Part shown: piece by piece, positions 1 through 12,257 of the stretch
Numbering within the stretch: the stretch's first letter is position 1
Layout: each line of letters starts with the position of its first letter
NCBI GenBank assembly: GCA_008932965.1
Contig: WBXG01000036.1
Coordinates: 1 to 17,593, forward strand
Direction: 5' to 3'
DNA: 17,593 bases
Origin: Verrucomicrobiota bacterium
GTDB lineage: Bacteria; Verrucomicrobiota; Verrucomicrobiia; Chthoniobacterales; UBA6821
Notes under the pieces: generated by a model
Database searches by the model: none
Seen by the model: the letters and a program-made list of their open reading frames with translations, nothing else
What the model was told of the DNA's origin: nothing
Position numbers and translations under genes: made by a program

Positions 1-128
1 AGGCAGGCGAGCATTTTGATGCAGGGCTGTATGTGTACATACTGCCCAAATCAAAATGGGAGTCTAACGCAGCATCTATCTGACTTCCCGGCTTCCGTAG
101 TAGATCAGTATGAAATATTCGGGCTAGC
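1..128 (+). mobile_element. palindromic MITE-like element, copy A (long form; left part cut by the window edge)
   Basis: Aligns base for base with the right half of copy D (6300-6434). The right terminus gatcagtatgaaatattcgggcta ends at about 127. Strand is defined relative to copy D. Confidence 0.85.
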
Positions 129-838
129 TCTCCAGGAGACTGTGGTGCAGGAGCTGTTATTGAAACCAAACAAGTAAACTCGGTATGATGGCGTTCCTGG
201 TCCGGAAGCGCTGCTGGTGATGCAACCGTAATGGAAACTACTGCTAGACCAGGAAAGAGAGCTCTAGCAATGGTAATAGAGGCTAGTGATACTATATTTT
301 TTCCTCTCAATGGATTCCGTGACTCTGCCAAGCTCATTTCGCTTACTGGTATTCCACACGCATCATAGGCGACAACATGCTTAGATGGAGTTGAGAGCTC
401 TACCCTAATGCAGTGACTGGCATGGTCCATCCAGTCAGAAGAGAGGGCAATCACTCCATTCGGAGAGGTGGCTCGGAGTGTCTCTATAATCCGTTGAGCA
501 ATAAAGATCGCATTCTCCTTTTGCTCCACTTCAAGACTCATGCGTTGAGCAGCAGGCCAGAGATAAAGCATCCCCAGAAGGATAATAGCAAGGAGGCTCA
601 AAGCGACGAGCACTTCTAACAAAGAGAAGGCTAACCCGCATATTTCATACTGATTCTGCTGCGGCTTGCGAACACCTGATGGATACTGCGTCAGCTTCGA
701 ATTGCTCCTCGGGCAGTATGAAACATACAGCCGTCGTCGCAATCCATCACCTTCCTTGTCTGCATCAGGATTAGCGGCGCCTCGCGACGAACCAGTATGA
801 AATATGCGGGCTAAAGAGAGTTCATTTCTTAGGAGCAT
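1..838 (-). CDS. prepilin-type N-terminal domain protein (type II secretion / type IV pilus minor-pseudopilin-like); partial, 3' end beyond the window
   Basis: Absent from the supplied ORF track because there is no stop in the window. My hand translation of the minus strand from ATG 838..836 is stop-free down to base 2. An in-frame stop lies just upstream at 853..851. It contains FSLLEVLVALSLLAIILLG, a prepilin-type hydrophobic helix with Glu at +5. Two repeat-element copies (631-814 and 1-128) sit in frame inside it. Confidence 0.55.
   Translation of the reverse strand, partial: MLLRNELSLARIFHTGSSRGAANPDADKEGDGLRRRLYVSYCPRSNSKLTQYPSGVRKPQQNQYEICGLAFSLLEVLVALSLLAIILLGMLYLWPAAQRMSLEVEQKENAIFIAQRIIETLRATSPNGVIALSSDWMDHASHCIRVELSTPSKHVVAYDACGIPVSEMSLAESRNPLRGKNIVSLASITIARALFPGLAVVSITVASPAALPDQERHHTEFTCLVSITAPAPQSPGELARIFHTDLLRKPGSQIDAALDSHFDLGSMYTYSPASKCSPA
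631..814 (-). mobile_element. palindromic MITE-like element, copy B (short form, 180 bp TA to TA)
   Basis: Terminal inverted repeats are ctaacccgcatatttcatactg (631-652) and cagtatgaaatatgcgggctaa (793-814). It is the same length as copy C and collinear with it apart from small compensating indels. The flanking TA dinucleotides are at 632-633 and 812-813. Confidence 0.85.
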
Positions 839-961: not shown

Positions 962-3685
962 CTACTTCCATTCGTGTTTGGGATAGCGACGTGAAAGTTC
1001 TCCTCGAAGCTTGGGATAGGTCTCCTTCCAAAAAGAATTCAAATCAGAGGTGATTTGTATAGGACGTTTATTAGGAGCACATAATTCCAATATGACAGGG
1101 GCTCGATTACCGGCAAGAGGGGGGATCTTAGTAACTCCAAAGAGCTCTTGGATCAAGGCCTTAAGGATCACTTCACCGGTTGGTTTATAGCGTAGGCGTG
1201 CCTTACGTCCTGAGGGAAGGGGGTAAAATATGGGGGCATGTTTATCAAGGGCATGACGCTGAGCTGATGATAAGAGCATTTCAAGGGCTGCAATAACGGG
1301 TCGATCCTTGACTTCTCGGTAACTAACGGCTCCCTCACACCATCGTTCGAGGGCCCTTAAACGATCCTTCTGAGTCCATGTCGGTAATGCTAACTCTGGA
1401 TAAAAATGAACAACCCACCTAAGACGATCGACCCAAACATCAACCTCATCTCCCCAGGTAGGAAGCGGAAGATCTCCTTGAGCTAGCGCTTCAGCAAGAA
1501 CATGGCTTGCTTCTAGGGAGGGGGGAGCATCCTGCTGTATCGATTCTAATACAAGATCACGATAGATTTTCTCTTTTTTCCATACAACACGGTTTATGGA
1601 GGTATCAAAAAATAATTCTTTAGTCTCATGAAAATCGTTCGGAAAGAGATGTCGTAACATCGATTCATCAACGGCTGTTGCCATCGAGAGTTGGGTGCGG
1701 ACCTCGCCGCTTCCCTGACCAATTTCAGTGATTTCAGCAGCCACAAAAAGTCGACTCGAAGCAGCAGCACTCTCTTTAACTAAAAGGCCACGTCGTCCAT
1801 GAACGACATCTGAGAGATTTGTTCCTGCTCCACGTCGACGTGCTACTTGATCGGCAAATCCAAGAAGAATACATTGAGCAATCAGATCGTCAGAGGCAGG
1901 AGCGGTCTGCGTGTCAAGTCCTTGGGCATGTGCGAGGGAGCAAAATTGTTCAAAGATACGATTGGTTTGTCGTGCAGCATCAGCGTGGATAGCATATTTG
2001 CGGCACGAATCAGAGCGAAACTCATGACGCTTAGCCCAAGAAAAAACTCGGGAGAGAACAAGAAAATCGGAGGTCCCCCCTTCAAAAAGCTCCTGACGTT
2101 CTTCTTCGGTTTTTTTATCAGTTCTTAAAAGCAATGGACGAGATTGTGTGAGGGCTGCCATCAGGGCAATACTGCGAACACAGCCATATTCCTCGGCTGC
2201 TAAGAGCATCCGTGCGTAGCGGGGATGTGTTGGAAATGAGAGCATCCGTTTTCCTAGAGGGGTAATATTTTCCTGGAAATCAAGAGCTCCTAAATCCTTG
2301 AGAAGCTGCGATGCTTTTCCAAGCGCCTGCTCTTCTGGCTTGTCAAGCCACGCCATGGTTTCTATTTGAGAAAAATTCATAGCCTTGAGTGTTAGCAAGA
2401 CTTCTGATAAATCGACGCGTAGAATTTCTGGTGCTTCACGTGCAGGACGTCGTGCCTGATCCCGCTCTGTCCAGAGTCGAAAACAGTGACCAGGAGCAGT
2501 CCTTCCAGCTCGGCCTGCACGTTGATCTGCAGAGGCTCGACTAATTTTTTCAATGAGTAAGGTATTCATCCCACGTCGAACATCGAAACGAGCCATACGG
2601 GCAAGTCCGGCATCGACTACCCCAGTCACCCCATCGATAGTCAGGGAGGTCTCTGCAACATTGGTGGTAACAATAACCTTGCGGGCCTCTGTTGCTGTTA
2701 CAGCCGCGTCTTGATCGGCAGGAGAGAGTTCTCCATGCAAGGGAAAAAGAAGAATGGAGGAGGAGAGCTGAGATCGCAGGAGGTTAATAGTTTTTGAAAT
2801 TTCATAGGCCCCTGGCATGAAGACGAGGAGATGTCCAGAAGTGAGGTGAAGTAATTTCTCGACACCCTCGGCAGCCAGGTCCCACGGTTTTTCTCCTTCG
2901 GATTCACGGGTGAGGTAGTGAAATGTTACAGGATGAGTTCTTCCCGAGGAGCGAATTACCTCACATGGTTCTAAATAATCTGCCAAGGATGCGGTATCCA
3001 ACGTAGCCGACATCACGATGATTTTTAAATCAGGGCGATGATTTTTTTGTAATAGGAGTGCCTGCATCAAGCTGATATCGCTGTAAAGATGGCGTTCATG
3101 GAATTCATCAAAGAGCAAGGTGCTAACTCCCTCAAGATACGGATCAGTGAGCATTTGACGCATTAAGATTCCTTCAGTGACAAAGAGAAGGCGTGTGGAT
3201 GAACTGCATTGTTCATCATGACGGATGCGATACCCCACCTCATCACCCAGTCTTCCTTCTCTCTCCTGAGCAACACGGGCAGCAAGCATACGAGCTGCTA
3301 AACGACGTGGTTGCAAAATCATGGCTTTTTTCGATCCTAATATTCCACCATCAAGAAGCATTTGTGGAATCTGTGTCGATTTTCCAGATCCAGTGGGAGC
3401 CTCTACAATAAGACGGTTGCTAGCACTTAGGGTTGTTACGATTGATTCACGTAATTCCTCAATCGGAAGAGCACTGGGAGTTAACCCGGATATTTCATAC
3501 TGATCTACTACGGAAGCCGGGAAGTCAGATGGATGCTGCGTGGAGTTCGAGGTCTTCCTCGAGTAGTCTGTACACACACAGCCGTCGTCAGACTTCATCG
3601 CTCGCCTTGCCTCATCAGCCTTCACAGCCTCCTGGTCAAGATCAGTAGGAAATATCTGGGTTAATGAAAATTGAGAATGTGCCAT
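962..3685 (-). CDS. hrpB: ATP-dependent RNA helicase HrpB (DEAH-box family)
   Basis: 907-aa ORF. Motifs: APTGSGKST (Walker A), DEFHER (motif II), SATL, TNVAETSLTIDG, QRAGRAGR. The C-terminal tail ...SFWKETYPKLRGELSRRYPKHEWK matches the tail I remember from E. coli HrpB. Codons 9-68 are contributed by repeat copy C. Confidence 0.9.
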   Translation of the reverse strand: MAHSQFSLTQIFPTDLDQEAVKADEARRAMKSDDGCVCTDYSRKTSNSTQHPSDFPASVVDQYEISGLTPSALPIEELRESIVTTLSASNRLIVEAPTGSGKSTQIPQMLLDGGILGSKKAMILQPRRLAARMLAARVAQEREGRLGDEVGYRIRHDEQCSSSTRLLFVTEGILMRQMLTDPYLEGVSTLLFDEFHERHLYSDISLMQALLLQKNHRPDLKIIVMSATLDTASLADYLEPCEVIRSSGRTHPVTFHYLTRESEGEKPWDLAAEGVEKLLHLTSGHLLVFMPGAYEISKTINLLRSQLSSSILLFPLHGELSPADQDAAVTATEARKVIVTTNVAETSLTIDGVTGVVDAGLARMARFDVRRGMNTLLIEKISRASADQRAGRAGRTAPGHCFRLWTERDQARRPAREAPEILRVDLSEVLLTLKAMNFSQIETMAWLDKPEEQALGKASQLLKDLGALDFQENITPLGKRMLSFPTHPRYARMLLAAEEYGCVRSIALMAALTQSRPLLLRTDKKTEEERQELFEGGTSDFLVLSRVFSWAKRHEFRSDSCRKYAIHADAARQTNRIFEQFCSLAHAQGLDTQTAPASDDLIAQCILLGFADQVARRRGAGTNLSDVVHGRRGLLVKESAAASSRLFVAAEITEIGQGSGEVRTQLSMATAVDESMLRHLFPNDFHETKELFFDTSINRVVWKKEKIYRDLVLESIQQDAPPSLEASHVLAEALAQGDLPLPTWGDEVDVWVDRLRWVVHFYPELALPTWTQKDRLRALERWCEGAVSYREVKDRPVIAALEMLLSSAQRHALDKHAPIFYPLPSGRKARLRYKPTGEVILKALIQELFGVTKIPPLAGNRAPVILELCAPNKRPIQITSDLNSFWKETYPKLRGELSRRYPKHEWK
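3481..3664 (-). mobile_element. palindromic MITE-like element, copy C (short form, 180 bp TA to TA), inside the hrpB 5' coding region
   Basis: TIRs are ttaacccggatatttcatactgatc (3481-3505) and gatcagtaggaaatatctgggttaa (3640-3664). The TA dinucleotides are at 3482-3483 and 3662-3663. It aligns with copy B directly, and with copies A and D as its reverse complement. Confidence 0.9.
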
Positions 3686-3724
3686 GATGTATTAAATCAA
3701 CATTGTTATTTTTATCCTAGAAAA

Positions 3725-3744
3725 TGTGAAATATTCGGGCTAGC
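3725..3744 (+). repeat. solo terminus of the same element family
   Basis: tgaaatattcgggctagc (3727-3744) is identical to the terminus of copy A at 111-128. I found no partner end or internal element sequence next to it. Confidence 0.6.
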
Positions 3745-4636: not shown

Positions 4637-5106
4637 TGAAAAAAATAGTGTATCTTTTCCTAGGATTGTTGGTGGCTACAATCCCATCCCAAGCTGGAGA
4701 GAGGCCCTTTGCTCTCTCTGATAATGTTGCCGTGGCCAAAGAAAATGGACGCCGGCTCGCACAGGCTATAACCCATGATGGATTTCGAGTCAGAGAGAGT
4801 GATTGGGTTGTTTCTTTAAAACCTCAAGAGCCTCATCTCTTACGGGTAACCTTGTTTGCAGGAAATCAATATTGGTTTATTGCTGCAGCCTCTCCTCCTG
4901 CTCTCGTGCTACTAATAACCTTGTACGATAGCACAGGCAAGCCGATCAAAGGCGATCGCCTCAAAGAAGAGCCTGCTGTTTCTGGTGCTAGAACTGCAGT
5001 AGGGCTCACCGCTCCTCACAGCGGCAACTATTTTGTCAAATTAGAATTATTGAAATCTCAAGGAAAGCTACCCGCCGAGACCTACCTCGCCTATGCCTAT
5101 AAGTAG
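4633..5106 (+). CDS. hypothetical small secreted protein (signal peptide, probably beta-rich)
   Basis: 157-aa ORF. The N-terminus MMKKIVYLFLGLLVATIPSQAGE is signal-peptide-like. Its ATG overlaps the upstream stop (ATGA at 4633-4636), which implies translational coupling with 3779..4636. Confidence 0.6.
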   Translation: MMKKIVYLFLGLLVATIPSQAGERPFALSDNVAVAKENGRRLAQAITHDGFRVRESDWVVSLKPQEPHLLRVTLFAGNQYWFIAAASPPALVLLITLYDSTGKPIKGDRLKEEPAVSGARTAVGLTAPHSGNYFVKLELLKSQGKLPAETYLAYAYK

Positions 5107-8100
5107 AGAGCTTGTGTATCCGGGTTAACCCGATAGAGGCTTGGAATCACTGCTGCGGCCATCGTGTCAATAGGGAGCTCTCTTTTTAGAAAATGAGCAA
5201 TGGAACGGGCTGCTTGATGGGGGTCTTGAACTACAGAACTATACTCTAAGCAAAGAAGAGGCCAGTTAGCATGATCAATATGCTCTGCCATCGTGATTTC
5301 GTAATGGCGATAGACGTTATAAAGCTGATCTACTGTTGCAATCGACCCAGCCATACGATGTTGTGATGTGATTACCTCCTGAAGAGAGCGGCGCATCCAA
5401 ATGATCCTATAATGGTTCTGTGCGGGGAGATTTAAAGCGAGAGGGATGACCACTTTGGTAGCTCTTCCGGCTTTGAGAAAGAAGGCTTCTTGTGACATTG
5501 TTTTCACCTTCTCGTGTTCAAAATACCCATTGGGATTATGTTCATCAGGGCAGCGATGATAATCTGTATTAATGGCGATCCCGCCTGCTGCGAGCATCTG
5601 CATCATCAATGATGTTCCAGAGCGAGGGAGTCCAGTCACAATAATAGGTCCCTGATTTGAGGAAAGCCTTGAGGAGCGCTTAGGGGAAAGCTTGGTGGAA
5701 AGCTTGGGGGAAATCCTCAAGGAAGATTTTTTTTGGAGAGAAGAAATTTTTTTTATAGGAGATGAATGAAATCCAAGAGCGCTCTGCAAATTTATTTTTG
5801 CCTTCTCTGACTCACAATGATACTGCAAGGCTTGACTTGGATTATTTTTTCCATCCAACGCAATATGAGCAAGAAGTCTGAAAGCATCACTGCGATAAAG
5901 AAAGCTCTTTGAGGCCTCCTGAGCTGCTTTCCAAGCAGCACTCCAGCGACCTTGATGTGAGAGTGAGGTGGCTAATGCAAGCCAAGAAAAACGATGTAAT
6001 GGATTTCGAAGGATCGCCTCACGGGCACATTCTTCTGCCTCAAGAGGCTTCTTTTTTTTATTATAGTAGATTGCTAAGAACGCTAGTGCATCGGCCTCCT
6101 CGTGGCGTACCTTGGCAACATTGCGCAGGAGGGCAACACCTTTTTTCTCCGTGCGATAGGCTAACCCGGATATTTCATACTGATCGTGTCGAGGGAGCTG
6201 AGAAGGTTGATGGGGCACCACCGGCGGTCGGGAGACCGCAGGGGGACTGCCGAAGACTTCCTTTAGGCAGCCCTGAAAGGACGAGAGGAGTGGGAGCGAG
6301 CGAGTCAACGCAGACACGTATTTTGACGCAGGGCAGTAGGAGTGCATACTGTCCATGTCAAAATGGGAGTCTAACGCAGCATCCATCTGGTTTTCCGAAC
6401 TCGGTAGGTGATCGGTATGAAATATCCGGCCTAGGGCAAAGAGGCCTGCATTGAACTGTGCAGCACTATCCTCAGGATGTGCATGGGCATAGGTCAGTAG
6501 TAATTCAAGATCCTCGCTTTTGGAATGAGCCAAAAAGCGAGCTGAAGTTGCTATGAAGTTAATTTTCTCTTCATCAAGAGTAGCACGTGCCATCAGATGA
6601 CGTATCTCCCAAGCTTCTTGAAAAGAAATAGTTTTATTGGTAGAGGAATCTGCTTTTTCCCAAAATTGTCGTAGCGCTTGTTTGGCATCACGTCGACGAT
6701 AGCGTGCAATGTGATAAAAACATGTTGCAGCACGACGCCTTTCTCCCACAAGAAGGTAAGCTGTTGCAAGTTCCTCTAAGATGTCCGTCCGTAATAAAGC
6801 CTGTCCTGCTTTTCTTGCAGCACTACGGGCCTGTTCTAAAAGAGGAATTGCCTGATCAAGACGATCATCATGAAGAAAGGAGAGTGCAAGGTGAAAGATC
6901 TCATTGCAGTGAGCCTCTTGAATAGCTGCCTGTTTATTGAAGGGAATTTCTTGTAAATAACCCAGAGAGACCAGTTGACGTAATGCTGCTTCTGTAGATT
7001 CTGGGGAGGGGGTTGAGGGGCTCCAAGGAGCTTTCCAAAAGCCGTCCCACGAACTAATTTTTTTGATAATTGGTTTTTTAGAAAAAGATTTGAGAAGTAC
7101 TTTTCCAGGCATATCCCTTCCTATTGGCAACCCTGCAATTGCAAGTAATGTGGGGCAGAGATCCAAAATAGTGGCATGATGGATAGCAGCTCCTTGGCGT
7201 ATTTGTGTTCCCTTCATGATGAGCGTCCCGATAGGGGCATGCTGATGCGTTGGTGCTGTCTCTTGAATTCCTAAAGAGCTTGGTCTGCGAGCATCATGAT
7301 AAAACCCATGGTCTGATGCGATCACAATGGTAGACTCCTCTCCAGCAGCTTCTACGAGCTCTCCAATCCATCGATCATAGAGTTCATAAGCGCGATCTAC
7401 CACTTCTCCATAAAGTTCACAGTCGCGTGGTTTTTCTCCAGGCAATGCAGGTTCTCGGTAACACATGGCCAAATGAGAGAGACTATCAAGCCCCACGAGA
7501 TAAAGAGAGGTAAGATCCTGCCTTTTCCTCCTCATCAAGTGCAAGGTCACTTGGAGTGTGGTGAGATCCTCTGCAAGAATTTTAGCAATAGCAGCTACTC
7601 TGAAATCGGTGGTGGGATCAATTTCATAAAGTTTGGGAACGAGGAAGCGCAGGAGCGCTTCAGACAATTGCTGAGGATGTACACGGTCTTGTGCAATTAT
7701 TTTAGAAAGGGACCATGGAGAGACACTTTTAGGGGGAATGCTCCATGGTTCATGGGAGGGATGATGAGCGATACGAAATGTTTCATCGATCATAGCCCCT
7801 CTGATTTTTTCAGCAGGAGCAGTTGTCCACCATCCCACTATGGTGGACGTTTTTTTATAATGAGAGAACATATTCCAAATCGCTGGAGAGCGTCGTGAAG
7901 TCCTATCATAAGGCCTCAAGCCCATTCCCGAATGATCAGCATAGGTAAACCCAGTAATTCCATGTTCATAAGAGTGCTTTCCGGTTCCTATTGTTGCCCA
8001 AAGTGCTGGTGAGAACAGGGGAGAAATCGATCTTAATGGACCGCTGACACCATGGGTAACCATCTTTGATAGATGAGGTAATTTTCCGGCAGCGATTTTT

Positions 8101-8216
8101 AAAGAGAGTAACTCCCAGTCAGCAGCATCTAATCCGATAAAAAGAATTGGTGACATAAAAAGAAGAGGTGTTTTTATATGATTGCGAAGAAATTTTCTAT
8201 CTTCTATATTCACCAC
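5097..8216 (-). CDS. tri-domain protein: alkaline-phosphatase-superfamily (type I phosphodiesterase/nucleotide pyrophosphatase-like) domain + TPR repeats + C-terminal sulfotransferase domain
   Basis: 1039-aa ORF. The N-terminus LFIGLDAADWELL...GKLPHL...SPALWATIGTGKHSYEHGI and IASDHGF are typical of AP-superfamily phosphodiesterases. The middle is helical and TPR-like. The C-terminus has GLPRSGTSL (5'-PAPS-binding loop) and IIWMRRSLQEVITS (3'-phosphate-binding motif) of sulfotransferases. The GTG at 8216 is the maximal start. The ATG at 8156 (MSPILFIGLD...) is probably the real one. Repeat copy D is in frame within the TPR region. Confidence 0.75.
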   Translation of the reverse strand: MVNIEDRKFLRNHIKTPLLFMSPILFIGLDAADWELLSLKIAAGKLPHLSKMVTHGVSGPLRSISPLFSPALWATIGTGKHSYEHGITGFTYADHSGMGLRPYDRTSRRSPAIWNMFSHYKKTSTIVGWWTTAPAEKIRGAMIDETFRIAHHPSHEPWSIPPKSVSPWSLSKIIAQDRVHPQQLSEALLRFLVPKLYEIDPTTDFRVAAIAKILAEDLTTLQVTLHLMRRKRQDLTSLYLVGLDSLSHLAMCYREPALPGEKPRDCELYGEVVDRAYELYDRWIGELVEAAGEESTIVIASDHGFYHDARRPSSLGIQETAPTHQHAPIGTLIMKGTQIRQGAAIHHATILDLCPTLLAIAGLPIGRDMPGKVLLKSFSKKPIIKKISSWDGFWKAPWSPSTPSPESTEAALRQLVSLGYLQEIPFNKQAAIQEAHCNEIFHLALSFLHDDRLDQAIPLLEQARSAARKAGQALLRTDILEELATAYLLVGERRRAATCFYHIARYRRRDAKQALRQFWEKADSSTNKTISFQEAWEIRHLMARATLDEEKINFIATSARFLAHSKSEDLELLLTYAHAHPEDSAAQFNAGLFALGRIFHTDHLPSSENQMDAALDSHFDMDSMHSYCPASKYVSALTRSLPLLSSFQGCLKEVFGSPPAVSRPPVVPHQPSQLPRHDQYEISGLAYRTEKKGVALLRNVAKVRHEEADALAFLAIYYNKKKKPLEAEECAREAILRNPLHRFSWLALATSLSHQGRWSAAWKAAQEASKSFLYRSDAFRLLAHIALDGKNNPSQALQYHCESEKAKINLQSALGFHSSPIKKISSLQKKSSLRISPKLSTKLSPKRSSRLSSNQGPIIVTGLPRSGTSLMMQMLAAGGIAINTDYHRCPDEHNPNGYFEHEKVKTMSQEAFFLKAGRATKVVIPLALNLPAQNHYRIIWMRRSLQEVITSQHRMAGSIATVDQLYNVYRHYEITMAEHIDHANWPLLCLEYSSVVQDPHQAARSIAHFLKRELPIDTMAAAVIPSLYRVNPDTQALYL
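6161..6434 (+). mobile_element. palindromic MITE-like element, copy D (long form, 270 bp TA to TA), inside the tri-domain enzyme CDS
   Basis: TIRs are ctaacccggatatttcatactgatc (6161-6185) and gatcggtatgaaatatccggcctag (6410-6434). The TA dinucleotides are at 6162-6163 and 6432-6433. The ends align with copies A, B, C and E. It carries about 90 bp of extra internal sequence compared with B and C. Confidence 0.9.
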
Positions 8217-9470: not shown

Positions 9471-9905
9471 ATGAATATAAAAAACCAACCTACTGCTCAG
9501 CAAGACATCACTATTTCTAGTCGACAGCTCGAGTCTCTTTATGCACTTGGCTTTGAGCTTTATGGTGCAGGAGAATTTGAAAAAGCTGCGGATCTATTTC
9601 GACTCCTATGCTTGTACGACCCAGAAAAGTCACGCAATTGGATTGCTCTTGGTGGAGCTAATCAACAGAGGGGAGAATATCAGTTAGCCATTGCTGCTTT
9701 TGTGATGGCCTCGTTTCAGGAACCCCTGAGTCCTGAACCAAGATTATATGCAGCTCATTCCTTTATTGATCTTATGGATTTGTCTGCAGCGTTGGAGGCC
9801 ACCAAACAGGCATTAGAACTTTGTGAAAAGCGAGATGATAAAAAAGAAGTCCAATCCCGAGCCGCTTCCTTATTACAAGCACTTGAGTCTTATACCCAAA
9901 AGTAA
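9471..9905 (+). CDS. type III secretion class II chaperone, LcrH/SycD/CesD family (TPR)
   Basis: 144 aa. LESLYALGFELYGAGEFEKAADLFRLLCLYDPEKSRNWIALGGANQQRGEYQLAIAAFVMAS...PEPRLYAAHSF matches, position by position, the Yersinia SycD sequence as I remember it (LEQLYSLAFNQYQSGKYEDAHKVFQALCVLDHYDSRFFLGLGACRQAMGQYDLAIHSY...PRFPFHAAEC). Size and TPR layout also fit. Confidence 0.75.
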   Translation: MNIKNQPTAQQDITISSRQLESLYALGFELYGAGEFEKAADLFRLLCLYDPEKSRNWIALGGANQQRGEYQLAIAAFVMASFQEPLSPEPRLYAAHSFIDLMDLSAALEATKQALELCEKRDDKKEVQSRAASLLQALESYTQK

Positions 9906-9923
9906 AATCACTGAAATACTACT

Positions 9924-10880
9924 ATGAGCAATGCATCACCTGTTCCTTCCGGACAATCACCTAGTCCTGCACCATTATCTACTCCTGATGTAAATGATAG
10001 ACAACAGCAGCTCTCTGGCCAGGATGTCTTAAGTGATCAGAAAGCGCCAGAATCTGTCTCAAAAAAACCAAATCTTACTCAGATTTCGAATGTCCCTGGA
10101 TCATTAAATGATGTCTATAACAGCTCTATAACTCATCTACCAGACCCCTCGTTAACACTGAGTGGAGAAGATATTATAAGTTTATCAGTATGGAGCAACG
10201 ATTCTCTTAATAGTGATGGAACTCAAGCAGCTAACAACACTGCTGCATCTGGTATCCTGGCAATTCAAGAGGTATGTCTTCAAAATCAGAAGCGTATAGA
10301 AGTTAACTATAATGACCCTGGGGCGACTCATCAAGATGTAACCCCTCAATTTCAGCAAAAAATAGGTGCTCAGAAAAAAGGTGTTACCCTGCCTTCTGTT
10401 CCTCCAACAGCCAATAGTCCGCTTCCAGGTCATCAACTATTGAAATTACTAAATAACTATATTTCTCAGAAAAGCTCTGGGACTCTTTCCATCTCTACAT
10501 TTAGCTCCTCACAAATAATCAGTAGTGAACTATACTTAGATCTACTAATAGGAGAGTCTAATAATCAGTCTTCGCTTAATAGCCTCAACGTTCAAACAGC
10601 AAGTCAAAGGCATGTTAGTTCAAAGAGGATGCTAGATTCGGAAGGTAGCATGAAAAGTGCTGTTTCTGAGCATTCTAAAACTGATAGCAGAGGAGCTGCA
10701 AAACAGATTGAATCATCCTCCTTTTCTACTACTCAATCTTTGAAACGAGGTTCTGCTGCTGGCTCTCCAGCTACTACTTCAGTAAACCCAATAAACGTTT
10801 CACAAGCTTTAAAAAAAGGCTTTGGAACTCTTTCAATAGTAACGGCTCAACTTCGCCCCAAGCCCTTAGGGCCTACCTAG
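9924..10880 (+). CDS. Ser/Thr/Asn/Gln-rich low-complexity protein; candidate type III secretion substrate
   Basis: 318-aa ORF starting 19 bp after the chaperone gene on the same strand. The N-terminus is Ser/Pro-rich and looks disordered (MSNASPVPSGQSPSPAPLSTPD...). I see no obvious transmembrane helix and no recognisable catalytic motif. Confidence 0.55.
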   Translation: MSNASPVPSGQSPSPAPLSTPDVNDRQQQLSGQDVLSDQKAPESVSKKPNLTQISNVPGSLNDVYNSSITHLPDPSLTLSGEDIISLSVWSNDSLNSDGTQAANNTAASGILAIQEVCLQNQKRIEVNYNDPGATHQDVTPQFQQKIGAQKKGVTLPSVPPTANSPLPGHQLLKLLNNYISQKSSGTLSISTFSSSQIISSELYLDLLIGESNNQSSLNSLNVQTASQRHVSSKRMLDSEGSMKSAVSEHSKTDSRGAAKQIESSSFSTTQSLKRGSAAGSPATTSVNPINVSQALKKGFGTLSIVTAQLRPKPLGPT

Positions 10881-11899: not shown

Positions 11900-12198
11900 T
11901 TTTACACGAATATTCCATGCTCCATCTATTACATATTATGGAAAGCTCTATGGCTACTGCGTTGTTCTTGAATTGTAATTTGGAGAGGGCACTTCACATA
12001 CAACCTGGCGTCAAACTTCTCATCTGCATTAACTCGCTCGCACCCACTCGTCTCACCCTTACAGGGCTTCCTAAGAGGCTTCCTAAAAGTCTTACTAAGG
12101 GGCAGTCTCTCCCCCCCCCGCGGTTTCCCGACCGACGGTGGTACCCCATTTGATTCCGCAGCCTCTTCGTCACGATCAGTATGAAATATGCGGGTTAA
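11900..12198 (-). mobile_element. palindromic MITE-like element, copy E (long form, intergenic, one end decayed)
   Basis: Its reverse complement aligns along copy D, from ttaacccgcatatttcatactgatcgtgacgaagaggctg... through ...gggtgcgagcgagttaatgcag. The intact terminus is at 12174-12198. The other end (about 11899-11922, cttttacacgaatattccatgctc) is degenerate. It contains a C9 run at 12111-12119. Confidence 0.75.
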
Positions 12199-12257
12199 AT
12201 TGAAAAGGGTAGGTAACAAGCCTCCCTTTTGCCCTACGATTCCACACAACTATACCC

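Follow-up and report, generated by a model that had tools for sequence, protein, structure and literature searches.

How can a palindromic repeat lie within protein-coding genes, be read through from either strand, and leave those genes unbroken? The question is raised by a 17,593-nt stretch of DNA (hereafter the window; contig WBXG01000036.1 of assembly GCA_008932965.1; Verrucomicrobiota, Chthoniobacterales, UBA6821) from an uncultured, apparently freshwater verrucomicrobial bacterium, which contains five copies (A–E) and a solitary terminus of such a repeat. The repeat is best explained as a non-autonomous DNA transposon, a miniature inverted-repeat transposable element (MITE), of a Chthoniobacterales lineage, tolerated in genes by an in-phase, stop-free reading frame, and we place the probability of this reading at about 0.85. 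The small size, terminal inverted repeats, target-site duplication with a corresponding empty site, and dispersed copies are those of a MITE, and hundreds of copies exist in related contigs.

Copy D and its host gene

Copy D is located within a gene for a large multidomain protein and overlaps a predicted open reading frame (ORF) on the opposite strand. The features concerned are:

5097..8216, minus strand: host gene of copy D, 1,039 amino acids, with a PF01663 phosphodiesterase/alkaline-phosphatase (AlkP) family domain, TPR repeats, and a PF13469 sulfotransferase domain
6161..6434, plus strand: copy D, long form, 274 nt including both 4-bp target duplications (net 270 bp)
6161-6164, CTAA, then a 25-bp left inverted repeat, the interior, the right inverted repeat, and CTAG at 6431-6434: parts of copy D
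5909..6454, plus strand: spurious antisense ORF, 181 amino acids, made up of the unused strand of copy D and ~84 open flanking codons

The host gene reads copy D on the minus strand as 91 amino acids (L595–L685 of the 1,039-residue protein). Alignment with 11 homologues reveals a clean insertion, with the 91 residues absent from all 11. In the AlphaFold model of the host protein the predicted local distance difference test score (pLDDT) is below 50 at residues 600–681, within the insert, and confident helices are present on both sides.

Sequence to either side of the insert is conserved, and the closest homologue (P0002; 77% identity) lacks the copy D residues. P0002 is encoded by a Chthoniobacterales metagenome-assembled genome (MAG), referred to here as L214 (JAIPKF010000027), at a locus syntenic with the window. 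The empty site in L214 reads ...TTT GCC TTA GAA CAT..., and the window at the same site reads ...TTT GCC CTA G/GCCGG...CCGGG/TTA GCC TAT.... The single TTAG of L214, set against CTAG, element, and TTAG in the window, shows that a 4-bp target was duplicated.

Both ends of copy D match the 15-nt terminus of the family without mismatch (6166-6180, plus; 6415-6429, minus). An earlier interpretation of the window from its letters and ORFs (the sequence-only reading) had described copy D as open on both strands, and it is: the plus-strand frame from 6161 (LTRIFHTDRVEG...GDRYEISGL) and the minus-strand frame from 6434 (LGRIFHTDHL...HDQYEISGL) contain no stops, and the remaining four frames have two to seven stops each. 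From the locus comparison, copy D is best read as a recent, lineage-specific insertion with its unused strand still intact, which gives rise to the 181-residue ORF. That ORF, already called spurious in the sequence-only reading, exists and is not a gene. Its element-encoded part has no Pfam match, and it is antisense to a conserved gene and depends on an element that is absent from this site in L214.

In two AlkP homologues (P0005 and P0007) the linker preceding the sulfotransferase domain is a further site occupied by copies. The same linker in L214 (8196-8336) contains a weak nhmmer hit (E = 1.5e-7), an eroded relic that has lost its termini. Old insertions of this kind seem to fade into lineage-specific linker sequence.

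Anatomy, phase and stop-free frames

The terminal inverted repeats are ~25 bp long, perfect in many copies, and have the consensus CCCGGATATTTCATACTGATC plus flank, the full consensus being TTAA-CCCGGATATTTCATACTGATC...GATCAGTATGAAATATCCGGG-TTAA. The 15-nt terminus CCGGATATTTCATAC has ten matches in the window (with up to three mismatches) compared to 0.42 expected by chance. Copies are 184-390 nt long, below the ~500 bp limit of MITEs, and carry no transposase gene. The element-encoded peptides are without Pfam match, and no Rfam family, introns included, is found in the window at the gathering threshold. Hairpin pairing extends along the whole length (z = -10 for a short-form copy and z = -5.6 for copy D). 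RNA folding of 25 short-form copies (e.g. L141 11707-11890) finds one strand steadier in 22 of them (mean -86.8 vs -74.8 kcal/mol), implying G-U pairs on one strand only; this may be a single ancestral feature, because the copies share ancestry.

The window is matched by a Joint Genome Institute (JGI) metagenome contig (3300027969) and is syntenic with Chthoniobacterales MAGs. Homologues of the element are present in a 'Spartobacteria' MAG (CAIWMF01), Chthoniobacterales MAGs, and many metagenome contigs; all of the related copies come from verrucomicrobial MAGs or metagenomes, apparently freshwater. A 14-base pattern scan of a genome collection was too loose, returning mostly chance matches, and the verrucomicrobial loci were the only real ones among the matches listed. 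There are 213 non-overlapping nhmmer hits in 79 fetched loci, and a census set of 69 copies was defined by pairing termini in related contigs. The sequence YTAR is present at 123 of the 138 flanks of these copies, duplicated as a 4-bp target, and the informative flank pairs (those that are not their own reverse complement) are direct in six instances and inverted in none.

The termini restrict how the element can be translated. Reading inward from either strand, frame 2 meets a TAA or TAG from the flanking YTAR and frame 3 a TGA within CATACTGATC, leaving frame 1 open with the peptide Leu-Thr-Arg-Ile-Phe-His-Thr-Asp (LTRIFHTD); at the exit the sole open reading is Asp-Gln-Tyr-Glu-Ile-Ser-Gly-Leu (DQYEISGL). 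From core to core, the modal short form measures 174 nt and copy D 264 nt, corresponding to net inserts of 180 bp and 270 bp, and the entry and exit frames are in phase only if this length is divisible by three. The sequence-only reading had stressed that both strands give the same end motifs; these are plainly seen, but any element with 25-bp terminal inverted repeats must trivially show them, and they are no independent evidence. Inside the element the two strands encode wholly different peptides, and the hairpin pairing is out of register with the frame.

Length modulo three is 0, 1, and 2 in 39, 15, and 15 of the census copies, respectively. An enrichment of genic copies for lengths divisible by three, which the sequence-only reading had put forward as a check, is observed. 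When an ORF is required to run from stop to stop over 100 codons or more, such lengths occur in 22 of the 23 copies that it spans and in 17 of the remaining 46, a contrast that is partly circular because the termini carry stops, so that an ORF cannot span an out-of-phase copy. The 22 in-phase, ORF-spanned copies are read by their hosts in one orientation in 12 cases and in the other in 10, and the unused strand is still open in 12. A stricter definition (at least 150 flanking codons) leaves 17 genic copies, split nine and eight by orientation. Thirteen of the 15 copies of exactly 174 nt are in ORFs, compared to none of eight frameshifted variants of 175-178 nt, and of the 15 in-phase non-genic copies, 10 have stops on both strands.

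The out-of-phase copies occupy short gaps between long ORFs. Pfam searches of five such gaps (four with short-form copies and one with a 182-nt copy) show the neighbours to be different, complete genes (e.g. QueH and squalene synthase; RNase III and an unknown; an amidohydrolase and RNase PH; an unknown and phosphoribosyl pyrophosphate synthetase), with no gene splitting by out-of-phase copies among the gaps tested. Several neighbouring genes end in the duplicated TAA or TAG of YTAR (L132 1606, L135 4277, L151 7317, L174 3088, and L018 6386), and in L162, L129, and L157 neighbouring genes end at the TGA of the terminus, after seven of its codons (22 nt inside the element). The target preference may steer insertions onto stop codons, and the termini may quickly cap truncated frames.

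The short-form consensus (184 nt) is open on both strands, and this is true of the full set of 31 copies as well as of the 16 genic and the 15 non-genic ones taken separately. Since the non-genic consensus is also open, openness is a property of the source sequence and not of survival in genes alone. (The long-form consensus mixes subfamilies and is not meaningful.) Several subfamilies with differing interiors are each open on both strands. Interior stop densities per codon in the frame-1 reading of each strand (special frames) and in the other four frames are as follows; the stops counted are not independent events, as copies share ancestry.

All 69 copies: special frames 0.020; other frames 0.042
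Non-genic copies: special frames 0.023 (83 of 3606 codons); other frames 0.042 (301 of 7142 codons)
Genic copies: special frames 0.0065; other frames 0.045

Other copies in the window and host proteins

The remaining copies in the window and associated features are:

1..127, plus strand: copy A, cut by the window start; a minus-strand prepilin-like ORF (838 down to 1, continuing past the window edge) reads into it in the open frame, LARIFHTDLLRKPGSQIDAALDSHFDLGSMYTYSPASK...
631..814, minus strand: copy B, short form, second subfamily; read in frame between MLLRNELS and AFSLLEVLVAL
3481..3664, minus strand: copy C, short form, 184 nt with duplications; residues 8-68 of a HrpB-like helicase ORF (962..3685, minus strand)
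3724..3743, minus strand: solitary terminus (CTAGCCCGAATATTTCACAT), left over from a further copy and lying ~60 bp upstream of where HrpB starts, kept in L214
11905..12198, minus strand: copy E, long form, intergenic between rpmA and purN; right terminus decayed and length out of phase
11929..12249, minus strand: second spurious ORF, seeded by copy E, 106 amino acids

All four genic copies (A, B, C, and D) are read through in the single open frame. The unused plus strands of copies B and C have a TAG in the special frame at 772-774 and 3646-3648 respectively, so that the stops attributed to these strands in the sequence-only reading were correctly placed to within one base. A weak Pfam N_methyl motif (E = 0.0075, below the Pfam cut-off) directly follows copy B, which would place the copy in the leader of a prepilin-like protein with the insert as leader peptide. 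Copy C is located between MAHSQFS and TPSALPIEEL of the HrpB-like helicase; all of the HrpB homologues examined start 3-20 amino acids before LPI(E/Y)EL and are without the 61 residues. A contig end of L214 has ~90% DNA identity to copy C and its upstream flank, the solitary terminus included, indicating that this insertion predates the split of the two lineages, and the frame is open in both. The rpmA–purN spacer is 204 bp in L214, with no element hit, compared to 497 bp in the window; copies D and E, both absent from L214, are thus younger than copy C. No orthologues of HrpB or of the prepilin-like gene were found in the fetched loci.

An exhaustive profile search with the peptide of one orientation identifies 265 protein clusters at E ≤ 0.001, most of them shorter than 150 amino acids and produced by calling ORFs in intergenic copies. 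Among the 150 best clusters, about 25 exceed 200 amino acids, and finding these long hosts needed the exhaustive search, a word-indexed peptide search having given almost only short ORFs. They include 3-dehydroquinate synthase, type I dehydroquinase, shikimate kinase, aldose 1-epimerase, 5-formyl-tetrahydrofolate cyclo-ligase, a phosphopantetheinyl transferase, and a DR2241/Fer4_23 protein, and the insert is usually at the N-terminus, at the C-terminus, or between domains. In one 576-residue protein (P0334) the element peptide (338-401) is the link between a Vut_1 transporter domain (26-164) and an FtsX C-terminal domain (455-561), and the protein may reflect fusion of two adjacent genes via a read-through copy. 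Another (P0306; 287 residues) has a weak rve integrase-core match below the Pfam cut-off, with the element peptide at 170-234, just after the domain.

The repeat also has consequences for annotation and assembly. At least 45 clusters (P0121-P0165) of 'hypothetical proteins' of 45-107 amino acids from Chthoniobacterales and Verrucomicrobiae MAGs are, like ORFs 5909..6454 and 11929..12249, unsupported ORF calls on the repeat. Assemblies break inside the element as well: a contig of L214 ends within a copy (10420-10552) and the window starts within copy A (1-127), so that the repeat appears to interrupt short-read assemblies.

Elsewhere in the window, positions 9471-9905 encode a small TPR protein matching TPR_3 (PF07720), a repeat type typical of type III secretion chaperones, and this is followed by a Ser/Pro-rich ORF of 318 amino acids (9924-10880) with no Pfam match. 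The two resemble a chaperone and effector pair, and could hint at a host-associated lifestyle.

Mobilisation, alternatives and known systems

As a MITE of this kind, the element would insert at a leucine codon (YTA) plus a purine, lengthening the protein by 60 or 90 residues and leaving the gene intact whichever way round it lies. Insertions would persist where the extra peptide is tolerated, such as the prepilin-type leader (copy B), the extreme N-terminus of HrpB (copy C), and the loop between TPR helices (copy D). The used strand stays open and the length divisible by three in every genic copy, probably through selection on the host gene; stops and indels build up on the unused strand and in intergenic copies. 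Mobilisation would occur in trans by a transposase, possibly IS5-like given the YTAR target and 4-bp duplication, and selection at the level of the element may have favoured interiors that are stop-free on both strands. It is a tentative suggestion, somewhat short of an even chance, that the family lineage has been shaped to be translation-invisible both ways, through a target whose duplication provides a leucine codon, termini that stop two frames together, a net length divisible by three, and interiors stop-free on both strands. If so, coding sequence would be a habitat for the element and not a dead end, and its insertions would regularly supply proteins of this bacterial lineage with new segments, which in time wear down to lineage-specific linkers, as the relic in the AlkP linker of L214 would illustrate.

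Several observations weigh against the MITE interpretation or weaken its support, in addition to the partial circularity of the phase contrast. We infer mobilisation by a transposase from the inverted repeats and target duplication only, because no autonomous element with matching termini was found in the ~1.6 Mb of related sequence in the fetched loci. Translation of the inserts is likewise suggested by conservation of the reading frame. The loci were fetched via an exact 19-nt terminus, which biases the sample toward young copies; gene context in the census was judged by ORF length and not by a gene caller; and some census copies are orthologous between metagenomes and hence non-independent. 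Two such 175-nt copies, one in a MAG and one in a metagenome (L055 1608-1792 and L137 11224-11408), both lie downstream of an RNase III gene and are orthologous. Finally, a 267-nt subfamily has ancestral, shared stops on both strands and is represented by at least three copies, which are never genic. That this closed subfamily still spread indicates that openness is needed for residence in genes and not for spread.

Two loci were considered as autonomous elements and rejected. L084 5141-6210 is a CysD gene between two remnants, and L153 66-2522 is a single-copy 818-residue ORF with no Pfam match, not a repeated transposase. The main body of the L153 ORF opens with a left terminus at 299-317 (LTRIFHTDRDEG) and the ORF closes in a right terminus at ~2493-2512 (QYEIFGLN*); another right terminus is present at 2559-2577. 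The arrangement looks like 2.2 kb of coding sequence enclosed by the ends of a single element.

The shared end motifs and the open antisense frame could be the product of a palindrome and luck. The 25-bp inverted repeats do force identical entry and exit peptides, pairing over most of the element makes the two strands related sequences, and long antisense ORFs are not rare in the window. This account is nevertheless improbable and largely refuted. The interior peptides of the two strands are wholly unlike, pairing being out of register with the reading frame. Elsewhere in the genes of the window, the antisense same-phase frame is open over 91 codons at only 1.2% of positions, and shuffling the interior of copy D leaves both strands open with P = 0.003, or P = 0.005 when hairpin pairs are preserved; pairing-preserving shuffles of the short consensus give P = 0.03. 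Moreover, special-frame stop density is about half that of the other frames in non-genic copies too. A more serious alternative, although still an unlikely one, is pure survivorship, in which insertion is random, in-frame open copies persist, and the open unused strand of copy D reflects its youth. It accords with the lineage specificity of copy D, the unused-strand stop in the older copy C, the decay of intergenic copies, and the spread of a subfamily that has stops on both strands. Youth, however, cannot make a copy more open than its source; the non-genic consensus is open on both strands with a net length of exactly 180 bp, and several subfamilies with different interiors are each open on both strands too. 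The sequence-only reading had held that only in-frame, open insertions survive in genes; the in-phase lengths of 22 of the 23 genic copies bear this out, but survival alone leaves the openness of both strands, seen in the non-genic consensus as well, unexplained. Survivorship otherwise overlaps with the MITE interpretation, differing only on whether selection shaped the source sequence.

Removal of the insert before or during translation, by intein- or intron-like excision, RNA hairpin cleavage, or ribosome bypass, could draw on the very stable RNA hairpin and the better folding of one strand in 22 of 25 copies. Under removal, nothing would explain why every genic copy has retained a multiple-of-three length and an open used frame, two features that intergenic copies lose. 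The junctions are formed by Leu...Leu, unlike those of inteins, and with neither an intein nor any other Pfam match and no Rfam family in the searches above, removal is very improbable. It is equally hard to credit that ORF 5909..6454 is a real gene, or the peptide a functional module recruited by many proteins, even though the ORF is 181 amino acids long, the peptide ends are conserved across hundreds of proteins, and annotation pipelines call many such hypothetical proteins. There is no Pfam match and the predicted structure is of low confidence. Hosts use either strand with unrelated interior peptides, conservation is at the DNA level, intergenic copies have target duplications, and L214 lacks the element and hence the ORF. 

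Among known systems, IS5-group insertion sequences and their MITE derivatives have a YTAR target and a 4-bp duplication, as described in ISfinder. The verrucomicrobial family shares both, but no transposase gene or full-length insertion sequence with these termini was found in the fetched loci. Inteins and self-splicing introns are poor matches, with no Pfam match to the peptides, no Rfam match in the window, and Leu/Leu junctions. Further parallels are ERIC/RU-1, Coxiella QMITE1/2, and the Neisseria Correia elements, which are likewise small, non-autonomous, and able to form stable hairpins, with inverted repeats, target duplications, occasional in-frame fusions, and elements that contribute a stop or a short C-terminal tail to a gene at its 3' end. 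In-frame copies within genes are exceptional there and mostly affect gene ends, as with ERIC/RU-1 (PMC2759123) and Coxiella QMITEs (PMC5896051). In contrast, roughly a quarter to a third of the sampled verrucomicrobial copies are read through entirely, some in the middle of conserved enzymes, and the source sequence is open in both orientations.

The likeness to Rickettsia palindromic elements (RPEs), drawn in the sequence-only reading, holds in behaviour only. RPEs, described by Ogata et al. in 2000 and 2002, are short palindromic hairpin repeats of ~100-300 bp, many of them in frame in unrelated housekeeping genes, where they add a peptide at sites compatible with the fold (summarised in PMC10969869 and PMC1166351), and 85 of the 728 RPEs of R. 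felis are within ORFs (PMC1166351). A 2024 review of prokaryotic MITEs notes in-frame fusions in several families, with RPEs at unusually high frequency, and speculates that similar cases exist elsewhere (PMC10969869). The verrucomicrobial repeats are similarly short hairpins, present in many copies and in frame in unrelated genes that are left intact, with 17-23 of the 69 sampled copies in ORFs. For RPE-1 of R. conorii, Ogata et al. reportedly found in 2000 that 19 of 44 copies are in ORFs. In-frame gene invasion by palindromic repeats is known best in Rickettsia and has been called unique to that genus, and we know of no established transposition signature, such as inverted repeats with target duplication, for RPEs. 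The verrucomicrobial family differs in that its terminal inverted repeats are long and perfect, that a 4-bp YTAR duplication can be demonstrated, and that it belongs to another phylum, with no sequence relationship shown or expected. Its hosts read it in both orientations about equally. It behaves like an RPE but is not one. No description of it was found in the literature, and the family appears to be undescribed so far. It thereby offers an independent, high-frequency case of in-frame gene invasion outside Rickettsia, and its anatomy suggests how a mobile element is tolerated in compact, ~90% coding genomes. Its transposition signature is clear (inverted repeats, YTAR duplication, and an orthologous empty site) and older insertions are distinguishable from younger ones, which opens insertion bias, frame filtering, and subsequent decay to direct tests.

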